DNA of 40,398 bases from assembly GCA_027311385.1 (NCBI GenBank), contig DAICZA010000003.1, positions 1 through 40,398 of the forward strand, read 5' to 3'. Shown one piece after another: positions 535 to 40,398 of this stretch; within the stretch, counting starts at the first letter, position 1, and each line of letters begins with the position of its first letter. Both the position numbers and the translations under genes were made by a program. The notes below the pieces were generated by a model that was not told the DNA's origin, did no database searches, and saw nothing but the letters and a program-made list of their open reading frames with translations. The stretch is from a bacterium. Lineage in GTDB: Bacteria > Patescibacteriota > Minisyncoccia > Phycocordibacterales > Phycocordibacteraceae.

Positions 535-831
535 CTAGACAATCTCAAAAGACTTTGTATTGTAATGCTCCTTGATAATTGCATTGGCGGTTGAATTCAT
601 CGCGCACGATTTGCAGGAAGCGAAGAGGTGCAGACGGTCTCGCTTCCCTGACAGCCATGATAACATTTTTTCCTCAAATTCTTCACGTTCCTTGAAGGAA
701 AGGCGACCGACGTAGAGCGTGGGCTGCAATTTGGACAGGCCGTAATTTTTGCACTGTTTCTCGGCTTGCACCTGGTGCTTCTGACTCGATGTCCGCCAAG
801 CGGCAATCGTGAGAAATCCGGGATCGTTCAT
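535..831 (-). CDS. cas2: CRISPR-associated Cas2-like protein
   Basis: 98-aa ORF whose ATG overlaps the cas1 stop (ATGA at 828-831). Its size and the segment LYVGRLSFKEREEFEEKML recall the Cas2 VYVG...RE region (E. coli-type Cas2, from memory). The call rests mainly on size and coupling to cas1. Confidence 0.6.
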   Translation of the reverse strand: MNDPGFLTIAAWRTSSQKHQVQAEKQCKNYGLSKLQPTLYVGRLSFKEREEFEEKMLSWLSGKRDRLHLFASCKSCAMNSTANAIIKEHYNTKSFEIV

Positions 832-1880
832 GGGGTGTATTCGAAAGGTATATACATCTTTTCCTTCTCCAAAAAGATGCGGGCAAGCAGTTCGCTTTGT
901 TCCGTAATCGCAGCGCGGAGCGTGCGTTTCTTTCCCCGGTGCGCGACTTTCTGGTCGAGGCGCTTCAGGACTGCTCCAACCACCTTGCTCTTCCCTTGTG
1001 CCGAGAGACGGTATTCACTTTTAGCCACGAGTTCGAAATCCCCTCGTTTGCCAAGCTCTTTATTTATAAACAGCGGAATAATCGCGGCATCCACCAGAGG
1101 GACGCGAAATTCCTCCACCATATCGAGCACGAGCGCCGGTTTGCCGTAGCGCTCGGAGTGATACAGACCGAGATACGGATCGAGGCCGATGTACAGGCAG
1201 GCGCGTTCGACTTCGTTATAAAGGATGCCGTAGCCGTAGTTGAGCGCGCTGTTGAATTTGTCCCGGCCTTGCGGGATACGGCCCGGGAATTTGAAGAGTG
1301 TTCTCATGCCTCGCCAGTACCGTTCCGCGATAGAGCCTTCGAGACCGAGCATCTCTTCGTTCGCCCGATTGCTCGGAAGCAGTTTCGCGATTGATTCGAA
1401 CACCGCTTCTGCTTGCATACGCTCCTTTGCGTTTTCAGCACCATATCGGTCGGCAAGATGGCGCATGAAGCGAATCTGATTTCGGCATTTGCCGACAACA
1501 AAGGTACGCGCAAGCTCGAAGGATTTGATTTGATCCGAAGAGGTCGTGAGCTGCGCGCGTCGCAATGTCGCAAGACCCTTCGGGTCGCTCGAGAAGATGC
1601 GGCCAACCGGCTTGCCGAACGCGCCGAGATAGACGATATCCACCTCGTGATCGAGTGCGAGCTGTACGGCATGCATGGAGATAGAGGAAGGTCGCAAAAT
1701 CACTATTTTATTGAGCCGACGAATCGGATACTCCTTTCTTGTTCGCGGAGGTTTCGGCAATCCTGTCTTCCGGCGTTTTCTTCCCGGGGGCAGAGGAGGT
1801 TTAGGGCCGGGAAGAGAGATGGTGATACGCTCGCCAGTCGCCCCGATGAAGGTGCCGTACGTGTCGATGAGTAAATCCAT
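828..1880 (-). CDS. cas1: CRISPR-associated endonuclease Cas1
   Basis: Cas1 hallmark block NALNYGYGILYNEVERACLYIGLDPYLGLYHSERYGKPALVLDMVEEFRVPLVD. The ORF opens at 1898. I prefer ATG 1880 (MDLLIDTYG...) because TTGACT-17nt-TATATC (-10 at 1889-1894) ends 8 nt upstream of it. Confidence 0.9.
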   Translation of the reverse strand: MDLLIDTYGTFIGATGERITISLPGPKPPLPPGRKRRKTGLPKPPRTRKEYPIRRLNKIVILRPSSISMHAVQLALDHEVDIVYLGAFGKPVGRIFSSDPKGLATLRRAQLTTSSDQIKSFELARTFVVGKCRNQIRFMRHLADRYGAENAKERMQAEAVFESIAKLLPSNRANEEMLGLEGSIAERYWRGMRTLFKFPGRIPQGRDKFNSALNYGYGILYNEVERACLYIGLDPYLGLYHSERYGKPALVLDMVEEFRVPLVDAAIIPLFINKELGKRGDFELVAKSEYRLSAQGKSKVVGAVLKRLDQKVAHRGKKRTLRAAITEQSELLARIFLEKEKMYIPFEYTP

Positions 1881-1888
1881 GGGTATAG

Positions 1889-1931
1889 GATATATCATTC
1901 CATTGACTTTCAGTCAATGGCATCGTTTGAT
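1889..1931. promoter_or_regulatory. Back-to-back divergent promoters built on a 21-bp palindrome
   Basis: CCATTGACTttcAGTCAATGG (1900-1920) presents TTGACT on both strands. On the minus strand, TTGACT, a 17-nt spacer and TATATC (1889-1894) point to cas1. On the plus strand, TTGACT (1903-1908), 17 nt and TTTGAT (1926-1931) point toward the recombinase. Confidence 0.5.
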
Positions 1932-2018
1932 GCGCTCTAAAGATACCAACTCACCCCTCATGGACTCCTCCGAGGGGTTGTGGCATCCCTTGTACCTGTA
2001 CCAGATAATACAAGGAAT

Positions 2019-3344
2019 ATGGAAACAACAATGGTTCAGGGCGGTTTCGGAGCGGCGGTCGCTCCAGTCGAAATGGTTCCAGTCCGGTACTGCCTCTATG
2101 CGAGGAAGAGCACCGAGAGCGAAGAACAGCAGGTGTTGAGCATCGATAGTCAGATCAAGGAAATGCTGGTTTTGGCTGAGAAAGAGAAATTGGAGATCGT
2201 CGAAGTGAAGCGTGAATCGCATTCAGCCAAGGAGGCCGGGGCACGACCGATATTCAATGAGATCGTGGAGGAAATTAAGAGCGGCAAGTTCAACGGCATA
2301 CTGACCTGGGCACCAGATCGCATCTCTCGCAACGCGGGCGATCTCGGTCGCATCGTCGATCTCATGGATAGCAAGCACCTGATTGACATCCGCACGTACG
2401 GCCAGCGATTCACGAATAATCCGAACGAGAAATTCTTGCTGATGATATTGGGGAGTCAAGCAAAATTGGAGAACGACAACAAGCGCGTCAATGTGAAGCG
2501 AGGACTCCGAGCGAGAGTCGAGATGGGCCTATGGCCCGGCATCGCGCCCACGGGATATCTGAATGACGGACGAAAGGATCATCGGTGTGAAGTATTAGTT
2601 GATCCCGTCCGCTCCCCTGTCATCAGACAGGTCTTCGAGAAGATCGGGGTGGAGCGCTGGAGCGGGCGAAAAGTACATGCGTGGCTCAAATCGGATATCA
2701 AGTTTGCCTCTCGGATTGGCAAGAGCATGAATCTCTCTACCTTATACAAGATGCTCAAGAATCCCTTCTATTGCGGTGTCTTCGAGTATCCGAGGGGCTC
2801 GGGCTCCTGGTATACCGGCAAGCATACGCCGATCATCACCCAGGAACTCTTCCAGGCAGTCCAAGAGAAGATCGCCGAGGAGAACCGCCCCAAGACCAGG
2901 TTCGAAGAGTGGAACTTCACCAAACTCCTCCTCTGCGGATACTGCGGTTCCGGCATCACCGCCCAAGAGAGAGCCAAGATACTGAGTACCGGTGAACCCG
3001 TCTCCTACGTGTACTACTCCTGCTCCCGCGCCAAGGACGTGAACTGCAAGAATCCGTACCTGCGCGAGGAGAAAGTTATCGAGCAACTCGCTGGTCTGAT
3101 TGACAAGATATCCCTCGACGAAATCGGTGCCCGTCACCTCATTGAGCGCGAAGTGTCGCGATACAACAAGTTACGTGCGGAGGTTGAAGGGAAAAGCGAA
3201 ACCATCAAGGCTAAGGAAATGGACATTCGCAAATATGCAAAGTATCTATTGAAGAATGGATCAAGAGAGGAGAAGCGCGAACTGCTTGAACACTTGCGTG
3301 ACCGTCTGATCTTGAACGACCACATTATCACGCTCGCCGATTAA
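2019..3344 (+). CDS. Large serine recombinase (resolvase domain, recombinase domain and zinc ribbon)
   Basis: N-terminal [22 protein letters not shown] catalytic-serine region and [10 protein letters not shown], then a recombinase domain and CGYC...YYSC...NC zinc ribbon, then a C-terminal coiled coil. The ORF opens at GTG 1980. ATG 2019 is preceded by GATAAT (2004-2009), and ATG 2073 is also possible. Confidence 0.85.
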
Positions 3345-3376
3345 CACAAAAGCGCGACATTCATCGCGCTTTTGTG
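3345..3376 (+). terminator. 13-bp perfect hairpin immediately after the recombinase stop
   Basis: CACAAAAGCGCGA-cattca-TCGCGCTTTTGTG. No clear T-tract follows, so terminator function is inferred from position only. Confidence 0.5.
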
Positions 3377-3446
3377 CGGAAATGACCCTCGCGGTTGCGA
3401 ACTGAAATTGATGCCTCGCGGTCTAAAAACCGCGTGCTGACTGCTG

Positions 3447-3517
3447 TGCGGGATACGAGAATCGAACTCGTGCCTCAACCTTGGGAAGGTCGCGTCCTAC
3501 CACTAAACCAATCCCGC
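3447..3517 (-). tRNA. tRNA-Gly (anticodon CCC)
   Basis: The reverse complement folds as a cloverleaf: GCGGGAT acceptor, anticodon stem CGACC/GGTTG with loop TTCCCAA, T arm ACGAG-TTCGATT-CTCGT, and 3' ATCCCGC-A. CCA is not encoded. Confidence 0.9.
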
Positions 3518-5786: not shown

Positions 5787-7510
5787 GGCTGGAGCGGCTC
5801 GTCGCCGGAGGGAGGAAGTATGGCGGAGCGGCCGGTATGCGTCCGGATGAGTTTCCCGAGCGCGCTGGTCACGATGCCGAATTCCTCGTTCTCAAGGAAA
5901 TAGAGCGCGAGCGCCGAGGCGGCAAGGCCGACAATGCCTGCGACAAGACCCTGCGTGAGGACGGACATAAGCGTCGTCAGGGGCGCGATGCCGCCCTCAA
6001 GCGTCAGCACCGCGTACGCAGCCGCGCCGCCCGCAACGGCGGCGATGGAGCCGTCCAGAGCCGGACGCAGGAGCGTCCGGCTGAGTCCGGGAGCGATATT
6101 CCGAAGCGCGATGAGCGACAGAAACACGAGGAAGAATTGTCCGAGGATGTTCGCGAGCGCGAGAAGCAGAATGCCCGTCCCGGGCACGTCGGACACTTTC
6201 AGAAACGCCGCGAGCGAAGCGGGCATGCTGCTATTCGGCATCGCGAGGAACACGAACGCGAGCACGACCGTGAGTGCGCCGCCGGCAATCTGGTACGCAA
6301 GCGGCCGCCAGGACTGGCGCGCCGCGTAGAGCGCGCGCGAGAACAGTAATTCCAGCGCGTCCACGACCAAGCCGACGACGGCGATAGCAAGGAGCGCCGC
6401 CGTGAGGCGCGTCGCGTCCCAATTAAACGCGCCGGTCCCGAGCACGACTCGGACGATATGCGCACGCAAGACGACGACAAGCCCGAGCGCCACGATAGAC
6501 CAGAGGATGATGTGCCGCGCGCTCGTGGAAAGAATTTTCATAAATTCATCATGCTTCTTCAAGGAGAGCGCTTCGGAGAGCGCCGGGAACGCCGCAACGG
6601 CATAGGAGGAACCGATGATGGCGAGCGGAACCGCCTCCAGATTGCCGGCGAAGGTGAACACCGATACCTCGCCCGTGCCGAGCCGGGACGCCATCGCCGT
6701 CAGAAACAGCATCGTGAAGGAGTTCACGCCGAGCGCGAGCGAGCGCGGCACGGAATTCTGCACGACCGGCCTCATAAGCGCAAAGGATGGGAGACGGAAG
6801 CGCGGCAGTACGCCGGCGCCGATGACGACCGGTATATTGACGGCGAAGTATCCGACCGCGCCGATGACCACGCCGATGCCGATGCCCGGCAAGCCCCACA
6901 GGGGATACAAAACGACCGTGCCGAAGATGATGCCGAGATTGTAGAGAACCGGCGAGAGCGCGAAGAGGACGAACCGCCGGTGCACCTGCGTGACGCTCGC
7001 AAAGACGCCGGAGAGGCCGAGCAAGATGGGCTGGACGAGCAGAATGCGCGCAAGGAGAACAAACTGCGGCTGGTACGCCGAGGTAACGAAATCCGGATAG
7101 AGAAACGCCAAGAACTGCGGCATAAAGATGCCGATAATGACGCAAATGACGCCGCCGACGCTAAGGAGGAACGTTGCCGATTCGGAGAGGAGCCGTCGCG
7201 TCGCGTCGCGATCCTGCCCGGTAATAAGCGGAATGATAACGTACGCACTCACCAAGGACGACACCAGTGCGAAGACCAGATCCGGCATACGAAACGCCGC
7301 ATAGTAGAGGTCCAGCACCTGCCCCGCGCCGAAGGTGTGTGCAAAGGTGCGGTCGCGGAGAAGTGCCAAAGCCTGCGACGCGAGCGTGAGCGCGGCGAGC
7401 AGATACGCGGCCTGATGCAGGCCGCGTATCGGCGCGGCAATACGCGAATACGCGGCTTTCCTAAGCCCGCGTATTGGTGCCGCGATGCGCTCATACGTCT
7501 CCCGAACCAT
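5783..7510 (-). CDS. murJ: Lipid II flippase MurJ/MviN
   Basis: Polytopic membrane protein with [30 protein letters not shown], typical of the MurJ N-terminus. The ORF opens at 7546. I prefer ATG 7510 because TACTAT (7517-7522) is 6 nt upstream and a terminator hairpin with T-tract ends at about 7549. Confidence 0.85.
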
Positions 7511-21552: not shown

Positions 21553-22077
21553 TCAGGGGGCGCATTGGGGAAGAGAAAAAGGGACGGTAACGACATAGTC
21601 GTCACTCGTACCCCAGACGCCGTCCGGGCCGACCGTCCTGAAAGTGTCTGCACGACAGGGCTGCGCCGGTATCTCTCCCTCATTCTCATCAAAAGTAAAC
21701 GGACTTCCCCACGGGTCCCGCATGAGCGTCGTCAGATTGGCAACATAGCCGTTGGTAGCCGCTTGTATCTTGGTCACGCCATTCAACCACGACGCATAGC
21801 AGGCGTTTGAGGTCGGCACGTTCCGTAAATCGACTCCTACACACACCCCGCAATATGAACAGCCACTACCGGTTATCTGCTCAAGCGTCTTGTGTGACTC
21901 TCCCTGCGCAAGAATCACGTCTTTCACGACCTGGCTCAACTCAGCTTCCGCAACGGCGTATTGCGCCTTAGTCCGCGCCGCCGATAGGGCGGCGAGCACA
22001 ACGGAAGAGAGGATACCGATAATTGCGATAACAACGAGTAGTTCAATGAGGGTGAAGCCGGCTGTGGAAGCTCTCAT
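21553..22077 (-). CDS. Type IV pilin-like / pseudopilin protein
   Basis: Prepilin-type N-terminus MRASTAGFTLIELLVVIAIIGILSSV. Confidence 0.8.
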   Translation of the reverse strand: MRASTAGFTLIELLVVIAIIGILSSVVLAALSAARTKAQYAVAEAELSQVVKDVILAQGESHKTLEQITGSGCSYCGVCVGVDLRNVPTSNACYASWLNGVTKIQAATNGYVANLTTLMRDPWGSPFTFDENEGEIPAQPCRADTFRTVGPDGVWGTSDDYVVTVPFSLPQCAP

Positions 22078-22081
22078 ACGG

Positions 22082-22360
22082 CTAGCGGACCGGCGGCAGC
22101 TCGTTCTGGAACAATTCCGGGTGCGCGGCTTTCATCGCGTCATAGTTCCCGTACGAGCCTGCCGTAAAAGGATTATGCGCAAGTATCACTGCCGCCGCGA
22201 GTATGCAGAGAACTGAGAAGCCGAGCAGGACATACCTCGCACTGCGTTCGTCTTTTGCGATTTTCCAGGCAACCAAGCGGCCGGTAAGTCCGCGCGGAGT
22301 TCCCTCCCGACGCGGGGGCGACCAATTGGAGTCTTCGTTGAAGACTACCTCGTCAGTCAT
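22082..22360 (-). CDS. Small hypothetical membrane protein
   Basis: 92-aa ORF with one central TM helix, 4 nt upstream of the pilin gene. TACTAT (22370-22375) is 9 nt upstream of the ATG. Confidence 0.5.
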   Translation of the reverse strand: MTDEVVFNEDSNWSPPRREGTPRGLTGRLVAWKIAKDERSARYVLLGFSVLCILAAAVILAHNPFTAGSYGNYDAMKAAHPELFQNELPPVR

Positions 22361-22418
22361 ATGACTAAAATAGTAGCATGAGTTCCCGCGTCAAGACCGC
22401 CCACAAAGAGTTGCCGTC

Positions 22419-22461
22419 TGGTGCGCCCTCTTGGACTCGAACCAGGAACCGCCGAGGTATA
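22419..22461 (-). pseudogene. 3' half of a disrupted tRNA (Ile-UAU-like), CCA encoded
   Basis: The minus strand reads TATAC-CTCGG-CGGTT-CCTGG-TTCGAGT-CCAAG-AGGGCGC-A-CCA. 29 nt are identical to the intact tRNA-Ile. Its acceptor strand is complementary to the 5' half at 22638-22644. The T stem has a C:A mismatch. Confidence 0.75.
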
Positions 22462-22504
22462 TGTAGGCATGCGACCATCGACCTCGTTCGGAATAACACT
22501 GGGC

Positions 22505-22581
22505 TGGTGGGCGTGCCTGGACTCGAACCAGGAACCGCCGAGGTATAAGCTCGGTGCTCTAACCAATTGAGCTACACGCCC
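22505..22581 (-). tRNA. tRNA-Ile (anticodon UAU), CCA encoded
   Basis: GGGCGTG-TA-GCTC-AATTGGTTA-GAGC-A-CCGAG-CTTATAC-CTCGG-CGGTT-CCTGG-TTCGAGT-CCAGG-CACGCCC-A-CCA. All stems are Watson-Crick. Confidence 0.9.
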
Positions 22582-22608
22582 AGTTTATTTCTCTCTCGTC
22601 CTCGCCCG

Positions 22609-22644
22609 TAAGCTCGGTGCTCTAACCAATTGAGCTAAGGGCGC
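22609..22644 (-). pseudogene. 5' half of the same disrupted tRNA
   Basis: The minus strand reads GCGCCCT-TA-GCTC-AATTGGTTA-GAGC-A-CCGAG-CTTA, then diverges. 29 nt are identical to the intact tRNA-Ile. Confidence 0.75.
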
Positions 22645-22652
22645 GCTCTTTT

Positions 22653-22658
22653 ATAGTA
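22653..22658 (-). promoter_or_regulatory. -10 box (TACTAT) upstream of the tRNA cluster
   Basis: TACTAT on the minus strand, 8 nt before the 5' end of the disrupted tRNA 5' half. No comparable box is seen directly upstream of the nested intact tRNA. Confidence 0.5.
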
Positions 22659-22672
22659 CAACAACCGGAAGT

Positions 22673-24625
22673 TTACGCGATATGACCCGAGCCCGATGGC
22701 GCAATAACGACGCCCCCTTCCTCTTCTTCTTTCTTTTTCGGCACAATGCCGTTGAGTATCAAAATCTTTTCAAATTCCGCGCGCTCAATGGTCTCCTTCT
22801 CAATGAGTTCTTTCGCGATAGCGTCCAGCGCGGTGCGATGCTCCTCTATAACTTTCGTCGCGCGCGCTTTCGCCTCGTCTATGATGTGCGAGACTTCGGC
22901 GTCTATCTCCGCTGCAACGCGCTCGGAGTACGGCTCGTTCCCAAGCGCACGCTCGCCAAACGCGATGGGGCCGAGCTTCTTGCTCATTCCGTAACGCGAG
23001 ACCATATCGCGCGCAAGCGCGGTGATAACCGCAAGGTCGTTACTGGGGCCGGTCGTCACGTCGTCAAACAACATTTCTTCGGCGACGTAGCCGCCCAAAG
23101 TCGCGGCGATGTCGTCCAGGAACTGCTTGCGTGACTGCATTTTCTTGTCTTCAAACGGCAACTTGAGCGTGTACCCCGCCGCGCGGCCGCGGCTGATGAT
23201 GGAAATCTTGTGTACCGGGTCGGCGTTCGGGAGGATGGAGGAGACGAGCGCGTGGCCGGCCTCGTGGTACGCGGTCAGTTCTTTTTCTTTCTTGGAGAGC
23301 AGGTGCGACTTGCGCTCGGGGCCGAGCATCACTTTCTCAATGGAACGGATGAGGTCGTACTGGGTTATTTCTTTGCGCGAGTCGCGGGCGGCGAGGATGG
23401 CGCCCTCGTTCATCAGCGAGTAGAGCTCGGCTCCCGAGAAGCCCGGCGTGCGCTCGGCGATAACGGCAAGTGCCACGTCCGGACCCAAGGGCTTTTTGCG
23501 CGCGTGTATCTTGAGGATGTCCTCGCGGTCGCGGCGGTCCGGCAGGTCAATCGTCACGCGCCGGTCAAAGCGCCCGGGGCGAAGCAGTGCGGGGTCCAGC
23601 ACGTCCGGCCGGTTCGTCGCCGCCATCACCACCACTTTCTCGGTCGGCTCAAAACCGTCCATTTCCACGAGAATCTGATTGAGCGTCTGTTCGCGCTCGT
23701 CGTTGCCGCCGCCAACCCCGGTGCCGCGCACGCGCCCGACCGCGTCAATCTCGTCTACGAAAATGATGGCGGGCGCGGCCTTCTTCGCGAGCTGGAAGAG
23801 GTCGCGCACGCGGGAGGCGCCCACGCCGACGAACATCTCCACGAACTCGCTCCCCGAGATGGAGAAGAACGGCACGCCCGCCTCGCCCGCGACCGCGCGC
23901 GCAAGCAGGGTCTTGCCGGTGCCGGGCGCGCCCATGAGGATGATGCCCTTCGGAATGCGCGCGCCGATGTCCAGGAATTTCTTCGGACTCTTGAGGAAGT
24001 CCACAATCTCCAGCAATTCTTCCTTTGCTTCGCGCGCGCCGGCGATGTCGGCGAAGGTCACGCGCTGGGAGACGTCAGCCGGGTCGGTAACGCGCGCCTT
24101 GGACTGGCCAAACGTAAACGCCTGCATCCCCGCCCCTTTTACCTGCCGCGTGAGAAACCAGAAGAGGAAGCCGAGGAATAAGAGCGTGAGCACGGTCGGT
24201 GCGAGCGTGAGGAACCAGAACTGGAATCCCGACTGTCCTTGCACCGTGATGGCGACCTTGGCGAGTTCGGCGGGCGTCACGCCGTAGGTCGCGAGCGTCT
24301 CGGGGAGACCGGCGGACGGGTCCTTGCGCGAGGTCTTCGTCGTTTGGTCAAAGTAGGTGAGAGAAAGCTGGTCGCCGTTGACCGTAATCGCGCTCACCTT
24401 CCCGGCGGCGACATCTGCGGCGACAGTGGAGAGCGGGATGTCCGTGCTCGGCTGTGTCATACCTGCAATGAGCGAATAAGCGCTCATGAGGAGCAAGAAG
24501 ATGAGGATGGTGGTGACGAGGTTGCCGAAGAACGACGGGCCGCCGAGGAGCCCGCGCCAGCCGCGGCGTACAGGAGGCTTCGCGGGCTTCTTCCCTCGCG
24601 GCTTCTTCGGTGAGACGGGTGCCAT
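22673..24625 (-). CDS. ftsH: ATP-dependent zinc metalloprotease FtsH
   Basis: [32 protein letters not shown] and HEAGHAL. ATG 24625 (MAPVSPKK...) has TATACT (24634-24639) 8 nt upstream. The 86-codon upstream extension in the track runs through terminators. Confidence 0.95.
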
Positions 24626-24866: not shown

Positions 24867-24907
24867 AAAAAATGAAAATCCACTCGGATGAGTGGATTTC
24901 ATTTTTT
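24867..24907 (-). terminator. Rho-independent terminator directly after tmRNA
   Basis: AAAAAATGAAATCCACTC-atcc-GAGTGGATTTTCATTTTTT on the minus strand. It starts 2 nt after the tmRNA 3' end. Confidence 0.85.
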
Positions 24908-24908
24908 G

Positions 24909-25329
24909 TGGAGGCGGGGGGAATTGGACCCCCGTCCGAATCTGGCCAAGAAAGCGAGTCTACGACGCATAGTCGACGTTAGCTTTGAGGCAGGATGCGA
25001 GGAACGCCGGCGAAACCATTCCTGCCCGATCCCTTATTTAAATGCGCCGGACGGGAGGCCGGGCACCGAGTTCACAGATAATTCCGCCCATCTCCTACGC
25101 TGTGAACGCCGAGAGAAGATGAACGTCGCGCGAGGCGATGGCGAGCTTACGCTCGAGCCGTCGCGTAGGCGAACGCAATGTCGCCGACCTTACCGAAGTA
25201 AGGAGACTTCGTTGCGCTTGCAAGAGTGTTCTTGGCAAGTTTGGTTGCTCGGACGGATTACAGTGTCATACGAGCGTGCACTGCGTCGCACGTCTTTCAA
25301 GGTACAGACCGTCAAAGCCGGTCACCCCC
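24909..25329 (-). ncRNA. ssrA: tmRNA (SsrA)
   Basis: 5' GGGGGTGACCGGCTTTGACGG and 3' GGACGGGGGTCCAATTCCCCCCGCCTCCA form a tRNA-Ala-like acceptor with G3:U70. It lies 39 nt downstream of smpB. CCA is not encoded (CAA follows). Confidence 0.9.
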
Positions 25330-37991: not shown

Positions 37992-38378
37992 ATGTTCACT
38001 TCGATATTCAACTGGTTGAAAACACTTGGGAAACCAGAAGCAACCGAGCAGGAGATTCAAGATTACATTGCGAGATTGGAGAGAGCTGTTGAAGAGCTCA
38101 CAATCGAACTTGATTATCGAGAATACCTTGCGAAGCAAGAAGCAGAGAGAGAAGCTTTTGAACGTGAAGACCGGGAAAGAGAACGAGAAAACCTTGAGTA
38201 CTGGCCTGTATGTAAAGAAGAGATTGATGAAGAAGATCTCGCCAGAGAAGAGAAGGAGCGCAGGGATCGTGAAGAGGAGGAAAGGCAGCAGCATTATCTC
38301 AGCCATTGTCCTCATTGCGGTTCGCGAATTCGTCTCGGCAGATGTTCCGCCTGTGACGACGCTTTTGGTAGAAATTGA
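37992..38378 (+). CDS. Acidic coiled-coil protein with C-terminal CxxC...CxxC zinc ribbon
   Basis: An AAGGAGA SD lies 5 nt upstream. An E/R-rich helical middle (EAEREAFEREDRERERENLE...EEKERRDREEEERQ) is followed by CPHCGSRIRLGRCSAC. GC is lower than in the core genome. Confidence 0.65.
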   Translation: MFTSIFNWLKTLGKPEATEQEIQDYIARLERAVEELTIELDYREYLAKQEAEREAFEREDRERERENLEYWPVCKEEIDEEDLAREEKERRDREEEERQQHYLSHCPHCGSRIRLGRCSACDDAFGRN

Positions 38379-38386
38379 GTAAACTG

Positions 38387-38427
38387 ACCCCGCCTTTCGG
38401 AAACGACTGGTGGGGTTTCTTATTTGG
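38387..38427 (+). terminator. Rho-independent terminator of the zinc-ribbon gene
   Basis: ACCCCGCC...GGTGGGGT stem (one G:U pair) followed by the T-rich TTCTTATTT. Confidence 0.65.
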
Positions 38428-38469
38428 AATTCGCCTTTTGTGGATAGACCCATCCTTTCGTCCCCACCC

Positions 38470-38610
38470 AATCGCCGCGGAGTACCGCGGCGATTCCCTT
38501 GTCCCGCCAGGCCGGCCATCACGGGACCTTCATCCCGTTAGAGGCAGGTCTTTTAAAAGACCGTCGGCTCTAATGGGAAAACCTACCGGGATTTAGGATT
38601 TTCCGAGCTA
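38470..38610. repeat. Cluster of hairpins in the convergent intergenic region, including a degenerate copy of the CCCGTTAGAG element
   Basis: AATCGCCGCGG-agta-CCGCGGCGATT (38470-38495). ACGGGA-ccttca-TCCCGT (38521-38538). CCCGTTAGAG (38534-38543) versus CTCTAATGGG (38568-38577), enclosing the perfect palindrome GGTCTTTTAAAAGACC. GGAAAA...TTTTCC (about 38576-38603). Confidence 0.6.
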
Positions 38611-38664
38611 TTTAGGTAATCCCCAACCTCATTGAATTTATAGCTTTATTTGATATTCTTAGCC

Positions 38665-39663
38665 TTAAGGCCTCCCAGGGTTACCTGGTGGGGTCCCCGA
38701 AGGGACAGAAGGACTGCGGTATTCGACCAAGGCCTTTGTAAATTCGGAGACTCTGTCACGTGCAATGGTGGATAGTATTGTTCTAGAAATCTCTTCGGGC
38801 CCGCCCTTCTTATGAAGAGAATTCATCAATGAGTTTGCTCGATTGATGCGCGACTCGACACGTCGTTTTTTAGCTTCTGAAGCTATCGGGAATGATCGAC
38901 CATATGTACTATTGAAATGTGCCCAACCAAATAAATCCGCGACCTCTAGCCCAAAACTTAAACCTTTTTTATTTTGAAAAGTTAAGCTATGAATACGTTT
39001 CAAACAAAATTTCGCCCACATCTGATACCTTGGTGTATGAGCAAAAGTTGATTTGTGACTTGCAGATATAAATGCCGCTAGCACTGCATCATCTTCTTGT
39101 CTTCGCGATTCCGCCATCACTTCTCCATATGCATCCTTAGTCTCTAGAAAGTGACCGAATTCGAGAATGAGTTTGCGAGCAAGTGCTTCATATAAGAAAT
39201 CGTTAAGGCCTTCCCTCTTTATAAAATCCATCACCAACCGGTCAGATACATTACGTCTTCGAGCGATACGAGTGATTCGTTCCCTATACCAGCTTTTGTC
39301 GATTCGATAAATAAAACAATACATATCAGCCCCTTCAATCAAACCTGTAAGGCGTTTAAAGAACGTGTCAATCCGCGGGTACGGGATTCTTCTGTGTCTA
39401 CGCGTTCCATCTCGATTCTTGAGTAGTCCGCCATCAACGGTGTACATCTTCTCTCGTTCGCCTTCAAATAAATCGAAAGCATGGATATTTTCAGTGGTCG
39501 GAATACTAGATTTCTCCTTGAGTGAAATCATGTAGCTGGAGAGTGCAGAATGTAAATCTTTATCAATTATAAGACCCGAGAGCAGGAAATCATCATGGTC
39601 ATCAGACAACTTTGACTTACCTGATTCGTCAATAAACAGAATGTAATTCTGTTGCTTTTGCAT
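38665..39663 (-). CDS. DUF3800 family protein
   Basis: The N-terminal NYILFIDESGKS motif and overall length fit DUF3800 as I remember it. The ATG is 4 nt after the stop of the upstream helicase-peptidase gene. GC is about 40%. Confidence 0.7.
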   Translation of the reverse strand: MQKQQNYILFIDESGKSKLSDDHDDFLLSGLIIDKDLHSALSSYMISLKEKSSIPTTENIHAFDLFEGEREKMYTVDGGLLKNRDGTRRHRRIPYPRIDTFFKRLTGLIEGADMYCFIYRIDKSWYRERITRIARRRNVSDRLVMDFIKREGLNDFLYEALARKLILEFGHFLETKDAYGEVMAESRRQEDDAVLAAFISASHKSTFAHTPRYQMWAKFCLKRIHSLTFQNKKGLSFGLEVADLFGWAHFNSTYGRSFPIASEAKKRRVESRINRANSLMNSLHKKGGPEEISRTILSTIARDRVSEFTKALVEYRSPSVPSGTPPGNPGRP

Positions 39664-39667
39664 GCAT

Positions 39668-40398
39668 TTATTGTATCAAACCGCTCGGCTTGATAACTTC
39701 TTGAACAATTCCCTGCACACTGTCACTCTCGCCGGGAGTAATCGGCATATGCTTTTTATTTGTACTCCTAGGAATTAGCAGACGAATGCCGTCTTTTCGT
39801 GGACCATATTCTTTAATGGTGACGTTTTCACCACCAAGAAGGGCTATGACCCGGTCACCCGTATCAGCTTTTTCTTGCAGACGGCATAGTACGAGATCAT
39901 CATCATTTATGCCCGCGAGATTCATCGAGTCACCCTCAGCCCTGAGAATGAAATATCTGAATCCAGGTTTTATTTTTGACTTCTCCACTAAAATATAGTC
40001 TTCAATATTCTGTTCTCCTACTAATGGATTACCACACGGAGCCGAGCCCACCAGCGGCACACGGATCATGTCTATAGTAATTGGCGACAAAACAGGTGTA
40101 ACGTATTTCTGATAACTTTCTCTTGTCTCAATTCTACTTTTGAAAAACTTCTCTGTTTCTTTGTCTACAAAATACACATAGCATCCCTTCATTCCGCGAG
40201 TAAGAAGGACACGATAGGTATTTTTAAGGAGGTCGACAAGTTTTTCTCCAGAACGCTTCACGACACTGTCTGCGGATTTCTCCCTTAATGCAATCCAGGT
40301 TTGATTCTCGAAGTTGTAAACAAGATCAGGACCGATGATGACCCCCACGTAATCAAACTCGAAGCCTTGAATCGTATAGATGCTCCCTATTTGATTCA
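39668..40398 (-). CDS. DUF2075/Schlafen-type SF1 helicase C-terminus fused to a LexA/UmuD-like S24 peptidase (5'-truncated by the window edge)
   Basis: The frame stays open to the window end (the M in the track is an internal GTG). IYTIQGFEFDYVGVIIGPDL and YRVLLTRGMKGCYVYF are helicase motifs of DUF2075 type. Next come IRVPLVGSAPCGNPLVGEQNIE (LexA-like cleavage region), GDSM (Ser nucleophile) and VTIKEY (Lys). Confidence 0.75.
   Translation of the reverse strand, partial: NQIGSIYTIQGFEFDYVGVIIGPDLVYNFENQTWIALREKSADSVVKRSGEKLVDLLKNTYRVLLTRGMKGCYVYFVDKETEKFFKSRIETRESYQKYVTPVLSPITIDMIRVPLVGSAPCGNPLVGEQNIEDYILVEKSKIKPGFRYFILRAEGDSMNLAGINDDDLVLCRLQEKADTGDRVIALLGGENVTIKEYGPRKDGIRLLIPRSTNKKHMPITPGESDSVQGIVQEVIKPSGLIQ

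Follow-up and report, generated by a model that had tools for sequence, protein, structure and literature searches.

To our knowledge, bacterial tRNA genes are thought to be interrupted solely by group I introns or by integrating islands. Group I introns occupy bacterial tRNA anticodon loops, for example in cyanobacterial tRNA-Leu(UAA). Islands and prophages that insert at tRNA genes make the gene whole again with a 3' part of their own, and the anticodon loop is a known integrase target. Miniature inverted-repeat transposable elements (MITEs) of the IS630/Tc1 type, for example Correia elements, are small and non-coding, form a long hairpin and have TA at both junctions. The tRNA genes of Lak megaphages carry anticodon-loop inserts of about 80-115 nucleotides (nt) with a tRNA-like fold, and alleles with and without the insert occur (Devoto et al. 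2019, PMC6784885). For the Lak A1/A2 introns, the authors reported no Rfam match for three of four and tRNA for the fourth, and the mechanism is unexplained (PMC6784885). In archaea, bulge-helix-bulge introns, split tRNAs and transposing introns are associated with disruption in or near the anticodon loop and with intron mobility (PMC10714607, PMC3293823; Kanai group), and in one archaeal case a tRNA fragment was left beside an intact replacement gene after integration of a 1.8-kb recombinase-bearing element (PMC3293823). Here we analyze a tRNA-Ile(UAU) gene located within the anticodon loop of a second, split tRNA-Ile(UAU) gene on contig DAICZA010000003.1 (assembly GCA_027311385.1, positions 1 to 40,398 of the forward strand; this whole stretch is hereafter termed the window), a chromosome piece of a bacterium of the Candidate Phyla Radiation (CPR). 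The nest belongs to a recurrent structured tRNA-in-tRNA element of CPR bacteria that is apparently undescribed, and in the literature we found no account of tRNA introns or nested tRNAs in CPR/Patescibacteria. From sequence comparison, we propose with a probability of about 0.58 that the element is a non-coding cassette with its own tRNA, which splits the resident tRNA-Ile(UAU) and takes over its function, the outer halves being relics.

The nested gene lies on the minus strand. The 5' half of the resident tRNA-Ile(UAU) measures 36 nt (22609-22644), extends from the acceptor strand GCGCCCT to CTTA and can be aligned to the 5' end of the uninterrupted tRNA in a relative (locus L031; related loci are referred to by L numbers). 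It is separated by an insert of 147 nt from a 43-nt 3' half (22419-22461) consisting of the loop part TATAC, the 3' strand of the anticodon stem, the T arm and AGGGCGC-A-CCA. Both halves are present just as described in the initial annotation of the window, and their acceptor strands form 7/7 pairs. Joined via the shared TA, they give a 77-nt molecule that ARAGORN calls tRNA-Ile(tat), with one T-stem mismatch, C50:A64. The insert has no open reading frame (ORF), ends in ...CTACA and comprises 70 nt of non-tRNA sequence in addition to an intact 77-nt tRNA-Ile(UAU) with the acceptor GGGCGTG and an encoded CCA (22505-22581; Rfam tRNA, 73.7 bits). This inner copy, the one tRNA-Ile(tat) that ARAGORN reports when the nest is left as it stands, is presumed to be the functional gene of the locus. 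Its flanks measure 27 nt on the 5' side (22608-22582) and 43 nt on the 3' side (22504-22462) and not, as annotated at first, 26 and 44 nt. The inner and the joined outer copy differ at nine positions, of which eight lie in the acceptor stem and the ninth in the T stem. Two complete tandem tRNA genes are not the case here; there is one complete gene only, and the half genes are complementary across the insert. A repeat search returned direct repeats of 29 nt (100%) and 44 nt (89%) at the nest, as well as a 14-nt inverted repeat formed by 22491-22504 and 22578-22591.

The 5' flank contains the 5' strand of a helix designated P1, a purine-rich GA module and the leader strand of a stalk. The 3' flank contains the trailer strand, a CCGAACGAG motif, the 3' strand of P1 and a terminal hairpin. 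The P1 5' strand TACGGGC (22604-22610) begins with the TA anticodon copy and was assigned by homology to L076 and L020, in which GGCCGTA pairs with the P1 5' strand. The P1 3' strand is GGTCGCA (22470-22476), and by manual base-by-base reading of the sequence P1 pairs at 5/7 positions in the window vs 6/7 in each of L076 and L020. The inverted repeat consists of the stalk leader strand, GAAATAAACT together with GGGC of the inner tRNA (22578-22591), and the trailer strand GCCCAGTGTTATTC immediately 3' of the encoded CCA (22491-22504). The 3' motif CCGAACGAG (22483-22491; family consensus TCCGAGCGA), kept in nearly all elements, constitutes the GA-NN-GA strand of a purine-rich internal loop and faces the 5' GA-rich module and P2 strand GAGAGAGAAATAA (22585-22597). 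The terminal hairpin GCATG-CCTA-CATAT (22459-22472) spans the 3' junction, and its 3' arm is formed by the opening bases of the outer 3' half. Upstream of the outer 5' half, a possible -10 element of the resident promoter, TACTAT (22653-22658), is present as annotated, matches the consensus at 4/6 positions and is conserved with its surroundings in L031, but a scan for the sigma-70 consensus did not call it. The same scan identified no promoter-like site within the insert. At 22492-22511 of the minus strand, the encoded CCA of the inner tRNA is followed by a second GCCCA copy (CACGCCCA-CCA-GCCCA-GTG), which is typical of the subfamily of the window; in L032, CAGGCGCA is likewise repeated after the tRNA 3' end. 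An encoded CCA is absent from most other copies, in which the trailer pairs straight from base 73.

Based on blastn comparison of all loci with the window, tRNA-Ile(UAU) is positioned between recG and ftsH in nested and un-nested genomes alike, and the orientation of the tRNA module at this locus flips between lineages. Judged from this shared context, the recG-ftsH tRNA-Ile(UAU) locus is orthologous among the relatives. L031 and L033 have a single uninterrupted tRNA there. The joined outer halves of the window are identical to the tRNA of L031 and L033, and to the inner tRNA of L002, at every position except 50. Here T50 of the relatives is replaced by C, the base of the window's own inner copy, and this change resembles a recombination or conversion patch more than random decay. 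Upstream, L031 likewise matches the window (...AAACTTCCGrTTGTTGTACTATAAAAGrGC) as far as the point where the tRNA gene begins; in L033, which has the locus and the tRNA in common with the window, the upstream sequence is only weakly similar. Because its joined outer halves match the single intact tRNA of two relatives in all but one base, we regard the window as a filled site, to which the uninterrupted paralogue in L031 and L033 provides the empty counterpart.

The insert itself recurs in other relatives. The inner tRNA of the window is matched at 74/74 positions in four of them, namely by the single tRNA in each of L003 and L036 and by the inner copy in each of L020 and L034. L020 and L076 contain the same insert in a different outer allele, with the acceptor CCGCCCC or CCACCCC and with a D loop, anticodon stem and T stem that are also unlike those of the window. 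The flanks of these two are about 86-93% identical to the window's (5' flank 87-94%, 3' flank 88%) and the neighbouring protein genes about 80%; the orientation of the cassette relative to ftsH is opposite to that in the window. Together, the empty sites and the second context of the insert back the initial proposal of an insertion into the anticodon loop that brought its own functional copy. The insertion stands, but not as a single event, since the insert of the window belongs to a widespread family whose fold is conserved. In L002, the inner copy is the outer-type tRNA of the window, enclosed by a decayed relic of the CCGCCCC type. Based on these alleles, the locus looks like one of successive replacement, possibly in the order CCGCCCC type, GCGCCCT type, GGGCGTG type.

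We searched for further cases in genomes and metagenomes. The 27-mer of the inner tRNA, compared with one genome per species, identified 35 loci, nearly all labelled Patescibacteria/Paceibacterota, and 7 of about 33 assessable genome loci with tRNA-Ile(UAU) were nested or half-nested. The metagenome pattern comprised a T arm, 45-75 nt and then the 3' strand of an anticodon stem with a second T arm, and left the anticodon unspecified. It matched 44 contigs, of which 4 were ordinary tandems and 40 had an orphan 3' half downstream of an intact tRNA-Ile(UAU); all 40 nested matches were tRNA-Ile(UAU). Besides the window, about 47 contigs of Paceibacteria-type CPR bacteria are nested at the same anticodon-loop site, with the identical break point and with inner and outer genes co-oriented in every nested case. 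Nests have up to four layers. L038 and L045 contain four successive 5' halves, then the intact gene and nested 3' halves, the outermost truncated, and extra outer 3' halves are present in L037, L040, L051 and L067. Other loci retain a 3' relic alone (L042, L068, L034, L004/L070) or a 5' relic alone (L021), forms that fit deletion between direct repeats. In the window, and wherever else inner and outer acceptor stems are unlike, the product of such a deletion would be a chimera with mismatches, which may account for the persistence of relics. In 582 kb of fetched sequence, orphan perfect T arms were all tRNA-Ile 3' halves or ends of transfer-messenger RNA (tmRNA).

Stalk copies without a tRNA are also present. 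These are about 63-70 nt long, have a plain hairpin in place of the tRNA, keep P1 and the GA loop, and precede, in tandem, a full cassette within one and the same anticodon loop (L055, about 330-400; L072; L029, minus strand, reverse complement 6039-6101; L038, minus strand, reverse complement 2173-2235; L045, 11397-11459). The tRNA-less stalks of L055 and L072 had no Rfam match, and Rfam scans of the window region 22350-22720 (E<=10) and of five related loci (E<=1) returned nothing but tRNA and tmRNA. Viral contigs, scanned for the inner 27-mer, for the nested pattern and for the flank motif, did not yield the element. The sole viral match, L081, was rejected as a chance match within a coding region, without a tRNA.

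Flank sequences diverge widely between lineages, yet RNAfold, applied to each flank pair, predicts one common plan. In the outermost part, the outer anticodon stem is followed by two loop bases, usually CU, and then by P1, a predicted helix of 7-9 base pairs (bp) with a 5' strand that begins with the anticodon copy UAU or UAC and a 3' strand that ends in AUA. Inside P1, a purine-rich loop is predicted in which 5' NA-NN-GA faces 3' GA-NN-GA(C) with tandem G:A pairs, followed by P2. Inside P2, an imperfect leader/trailer helix is predicted to run straight into the inner acceptor stem; base -1 is paired with base 73 in 13/13 elements. Between the P1 3' strand and the outer 3' half there is a small hairpin with the first bases of the outer half as its 3' arm. 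This junction hairpin is present in nearly all elements with differing sequences, for example AUAUC-GAA-GAUAU, AAAAAC-GAA-GUUUUU, UAUCGCG-UAAU-CGCGAUA and, in the window, GCAUG-CCUA-CAUAU. The window belongs to family B, the inserts of which start with UAC and have an additional GA-rich module. By reading the sequences, we also considered the GA loop as a kink-turn, loop E, hammerhead or hairpin-ribozyme motif, and rejected each because the required bulges or core bases were lacking.

Covariation was assessed in two sets. In the first, 17 elements were represented by their real P1, loop and anticodon-stem segments, with constant linkers in place of the distal stalk and the 3' tail. Here 94.5% of cells pair, compared with 76.4% after shuffling (reached in 0/500 shuffles) and 31-48% with slid partners. 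Pairs changed on both sides account for 6/9 of P1 and for both in-loop pairs in these 17 elements, and P1 covariation is strong in family A. In the second set, 13 full native elements, the corresponding values are 93.5%, 75.8% (0/500) and 33-48%. Among P1 and loop pairs, G:U occurs 12 times and A:C 2 times. This excess indicates that the structure forms on the tRNA-sense strand, as a transcript or as sense single-stranded DNA, and not as a symmetric DNA palindrome. The covariation indicates that the stalk is under selection, even in combination with a dead relic.

The outer copies vary in their state. Of 27 loci with both halves, the joined outer copy is called tRNA-Ile(tat) by ARAGORN in 18; among the remainder, 3 are undetectable, 3 have defective loops and 3 have a changed anticodon copy (TAG, TAA, TGT). 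The 5' halves are heavily eroded in L057, L058, L060 and L053, and the D arm is lost in some outer copies. The initial view of the window's broken copy as decaying is therefore borne out in part: the C:A mismatch is there, decay in the window is weakly shown, and clear decay is found at other loci. By sequence comparison, the outer anticodon stems of L049, L066 and L078 are mismatched because one half bears the sequence of the inner copy, which points to frequent exchange between copies. The anticodon copy of the outer 3' half is TAG in one clade (L044, L040, L060, L032), TAA in L076 and TGT in L080; if spliced, such outer copies would place a new anticodon on an Ile-type body. D-loop hairpin insertions occur in L038, L041, L054 and L074. 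Together with L043, the D-loop insertions of outermost relic 5' halves (for L038, minus strand, reverse complement about 2115-2160) are hairpins of 30-45 nt, several of which contain GCTTCGGC with a UUCG-type loop, and they look like another small element colonising dead copies.

Replacement by a cassette would account for these observations as follows, starting from an anatomy, a recurrence, empty and filled sites, covariation, relic decay and layering that the comparisons above establish. Each cassette, one of a family in Paceibacteria-type CPR bacteria, is a whole tRNA-Ile(UAU) gene borne on the end of a conserved stalk. It sits after U33 in the anticodon loop of the resident gene at the recG-ftsH locus, and the two junctions share 2-4 bases (TA, TAT, TATA or TATC). 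Its insertion would split the resident gene. The tRNA of the cassette would be transcribed from the resident promoter within one long precursor, and would have to be, given that the scan detected nothing promoter-like within the insert. Ordinary end-processing by RNase P and 3' processing would free the inner tRNA, which would then decode AUA. The split resident copy, presumably non-functional, would be redundant and could erode, be patched by recombination with the inner copy or be partly deleted. The intact inner copy would be open to re-invasion, which would give rise to nests in the manner of Russian dolls. Movement may proceed by homologous recombination via the conserved tRNA halves after DNA uptake. 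Such recombination with an intact inner copy adds one layer and would therefore also explain the layering. Alternatively, movement may involve a site-specific or RNA-mediated step, to which the short shared core and the junction hairpin would be equally suited. Two specific models were rejected, namely IS200/IS605-type insertion 3' of TTAC, because the uninterrupted loop reads TTAT, and core-site models for serine or tyrosine recombinases, because the junction is off the dyad centre and the spacers of element and target differ.

Several observations weigh against replacement. The stalk is conserved in L057, L058 and L060, where the outer halves are dead, and its role is therefore unexplained by the replacement model itself. 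P1 and the terminal hairpin pair with both anticodon copies, as would the exon-binding guide of an intron. Acceptor pairing is 7/7 in 19/27 outer copies, so that residual function is possible. Among related pairs, identity is 95.5% for the inner tRNA, 88-89% for the outer halves and 77-81% for the flanks, and the outer halves are thus conserved above the flanks; because recombination with the inner copy is frequent, this comparison did not separate a relic from a functional exon. The difference between the window and L031 could reflect either gain or precise loss. No insertion enzyme or mechanism was identified. Strong matches in a descriptor scan of the 582 kb, a small and biased sample, were confined to tRNA-Ile loci, and with no copies outside these loci the term mobile expresses a comparative inference. 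The descriptor was tuned to family A and misses the window's own family B copy; the window was for this reason rechecked with the 3' motif and holds one copy of the element. The role of the stalk would be one of three, namely folding and processing of the inner tRNA amid competing half-copies, propagation of the element, or excision at the RNA level.

The last of these leads to the alternative that survives best, a tRNA intron of a new type, which we consider possible but clearly less likely. The stalk and the inner tRNA would be excised and the outer exons ligated, so that one transcript yields two tRNA-Ile(UAU) species, and the AUA(U) at the end of P1 would serve as a guide, pairing initially with the 5'-junction copy of the anticodon and subsequently with the 3' exon. 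The geometry agrees with this: the stalk spans the insert from its first base to 7-8 nt before its 3' end, a conserved hairpin covers the 3' junction, the AUA that ends the P1 3' strand is able to pair with either of the two UAU copies, and L061 exhibits a three-way covariation (UAUC / GAUA / UAUC). The excess of G:U over A:C is expected of a transcript structure, the tRNA-less stalks have the same fold, and Lak megaphages provide tRNAs with anticodon-loop introns containing a tRNA-like domain (PMC6784885). The bulges and cores of known splicing systems were not found, however, there being no group I core or other Rfam family and no bulge-helix-bulge in the predicted folds, and duplication of the anticodon bases at both junctions is unnecessary for an intron. 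In favour of an intron, outer copies are mostly intact, with acceptor stems that differ but are fully paired, and L020 and L076 differ by a compensatory change of G3-C70 to A3-U70; differing paired outer stems are equally expected of separately invaded resident alleles, and many outer copies are plainly dead with the stalk retained. A tRNA-less stalk interrupting the sole tRNA-Ile(UAU) was not observed at any locus, although the searches were biased against such loci.

A related and similarly tentative possibility joins splicing with mobility. The insert would be a new bacterial tRNA intron and at the same time a mobile RNA element that, once excised, recognises the UAU of an uninterrupted tRNA-Ile through its AUA guide and reinserts there, its excision possibly helped by tRNA-processing enzymes recruited by the inner tRNA. 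It would then be the first non-group I tRNA intron of bacteria and a mechanistic relative of the Lak tRNA-like introns, with two tRNAs per transcript and an element that spreads while always carrying a spare copy of its target.

That the nest is the remnant of integrase-mediated integration and excision, with the half genes as attL/attR-type duplications left after deletion of an island or prophage, appears very improbable. A short core (TA or TAT) is common to both junctions, a large serine recombinase gene is located in the window (1980-3344), and the anticodon loop is in general a frequent integrase target for which a replacement tRNA part is carried (for an archaeal case, see PMC3293823). 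Yet the insert of 147 nt contains no ORF, and the recombinase gene is 19 kb away beside another tRNA. Integration leaves one displaced fragment kilobases off, whereas here 5' and 3' relics both flank a complete tRNA. The flanks form a conserved covarying stalk, unlike random leftovers of a deletion, and the compact form is repeated in about 47 contigs.

Least of all do we favour a lineage-specific accident, in which a tandem array of tRNA genes underwent two local duplications or deletions, or an artefact of assembly: direct repeats of 29-44 nt can confuse assemblers, and in L012 (minus strand, reverse complement about 1605-1704) exactly 100 N separate ...GAGCTTA and CCTCGG... of a tRNA-Ile with otherwise matching halves, but the artefact objection, raised at the outset, fails on an independent public contig of the same organism (L082, GCA_002255415.1) that matches the window at 99.97% identity over 3383 nt and reproduces its arrangement to the base, the junction position and flank architecture are common to dozens of divergent contigs from different samples, and the covariation reflects long-term selection on the flanks. 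The run of 100 N in L012 is probably an assembly gap caused by a nested repeat, and nested tRNA structures also break assemblies.

Whichever explanation holds, a non-coding stalk of 70 nt with a whole tRNA is found repeatedly, throughout a large radiation of bacteria, at one exact site of a single tRNA species. A replacement cassette would represent a new route for the turnover of an essential single-copy gene, with the nested fossils as a record of successive invasions. If the insert is spliced, it represents a new class of intron and a bacterial parallel to the split and intron-containing tRNAs of archaea, with a bearing on ideas that tRNAs arose from halves. Splicing would give the window an outer tRNA that starts with GCGCCCT, has an uninterrupted CUUAUAC loop and ends in AGGGCGCACCA. 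The inner and outer tRNAs of the window differ in the acceptor stem and are therefore distinguishable by tRNA sequencing. Since tRNA finders report the inner gene alone, nests are invisible in current annotations.

The surroundings of the nest identify its host and contain several further features. FtsH of the window is 100% identical to that of 'Parcubacteria group bacterium 20-58-5', and FtsH P0002 is the closest relative (93% identical). The nest is positioned between recG and ftsH, and the tRNA module is inverted in the window. Two small ORFs on the minus strand (21553-22360) separate recG from the tRNA; one encodes 174 amino acids with a prepilin N-methylation motif, the other 92 amino acids without a Pfam match. 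We take these two ORFs to be a local insertion, because the tRNA directly follows recG in L020, L002 and L076. A bacterial RNase P RNA (class A) and tmRNA were identified in the window by Rfam. The tmRNA (24906-25329, minus strand; 71 bits) is 424 nt long, compared with a model of 374 positions and a span of about 390 nt in three relatives (L043, L044, L072), and is missed by ARAGORN; it may carry an insertion or an unusual domain. At 828-3517, where GC content is 50-55% compared with about 60% elsewhere, genes for Cas1 (828-1898, minus strand) and for the large serine recombinase (1980-3344, plus strand; Resolvase, Recombinase and Zn-ribbon domains) adjoin tRNA-Gly(CCC) (3446-3517, minus strand), and an element may have integrated here, at a second tRNA gene. 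At the right end (38001-40398), GC content falls to 44.6%, and one of the two ORFs there (38665-39663) has no Pfam match; this end may be foreign DNA.

Compared with the known systems, the CPR element combines features of several without coinciding with any. Like MITEs, it is small, non-coding and folded, with TA at both junctions. MITEs, however, have a fixed TA duplication, terminal inverted repeats and dispersed copies, whereas the CPR insert shares 2-4 bases between its junctions, has the 3' arm of its repeat 7-8 nt internal, carries a purine-rich loop on one strand only and occurs at a single target, with none dispersed in the small and biased sample of 582 kb. As with islands at tRNA genes, the invader supplies what its insertion destroys, so that insertion is tolerated. 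In the window, by contrast, the insert of 147 nt has neither an integrase nor other cargo, supplies a whole tRNA and leaves both halves of the target adjacent.

With archaeal split tRNAs, the element has in common a leader/trailer pairing that brings the halves together. Archaeal junctions are at 37/38, in comparison to 33/34-36/37 in the CPR element, the CPR insert carries a full tRNA and the host is bacterial. By inspection, no bulge-helix-bulge is present in the predicted folds of 27 elements, in which the junction between anticodon stem and P1 is asymmetric (2 nt vs about 12 nt). EndA and RtcB were not among the Pfam matches for 28 of the 36 longest non-overlapping ORFs of the 40-kb window, which covers part of the genome. 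No Rfam match was obtained to self-cleaving ribozymes (hammerhead, hairpin, twister, pistol, hatchet, hepatitis delta virus-like), though a ribozyme interrupted by a tRNA could escape such detection. Group I introns resemble the element in their anticodon-loop site and in a P1 helix that involves bases of the 5' junction. They have their guide at the 5' end of the intron and a terminal G, whereas the P1 partner of the window is located 8 nt from the 3' end of the insert and the final base is A; Intron_gpI of Rfam had no match in window region 22350-22720 (E<=10) or in five related loci (E<=1).

The Lak introns are similar in that the window insert, too, is an anticodon-loop insert containing a tRNA fold. 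According to our own reading of Table S6 of PMC6784885, Lak inserts consist of a 5' hairpin, an A-rich linker and a tRNA-like domain that ends 1-2 nt before the 3' junction. The A1/A2 inserts in that table end just after the acceptor stem of the tRNA-like domain, which is the position of RNase Z cleavage; by our reading this is clear for Phe, Thr and Gly and one base off for Tyr, and it hints that tRNA-processing enzymes define the Lak 3' splice site. Lak inserts are without a leader/trailer stalk, P1 or GA loop, whereas the tRNA of the window is central, between flanks of 27 and 43 nt that pair with each other. With the exception of the Thr insert (Rfam tRNA), the Lak inner element is degenerate and not a second copy of the host tRNA. 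Lak introns reside in a phage and in several isotypes (Tyr, Phe, Thr, Gly), whereas the CPR element resides in tRNA-Ile(UAU).

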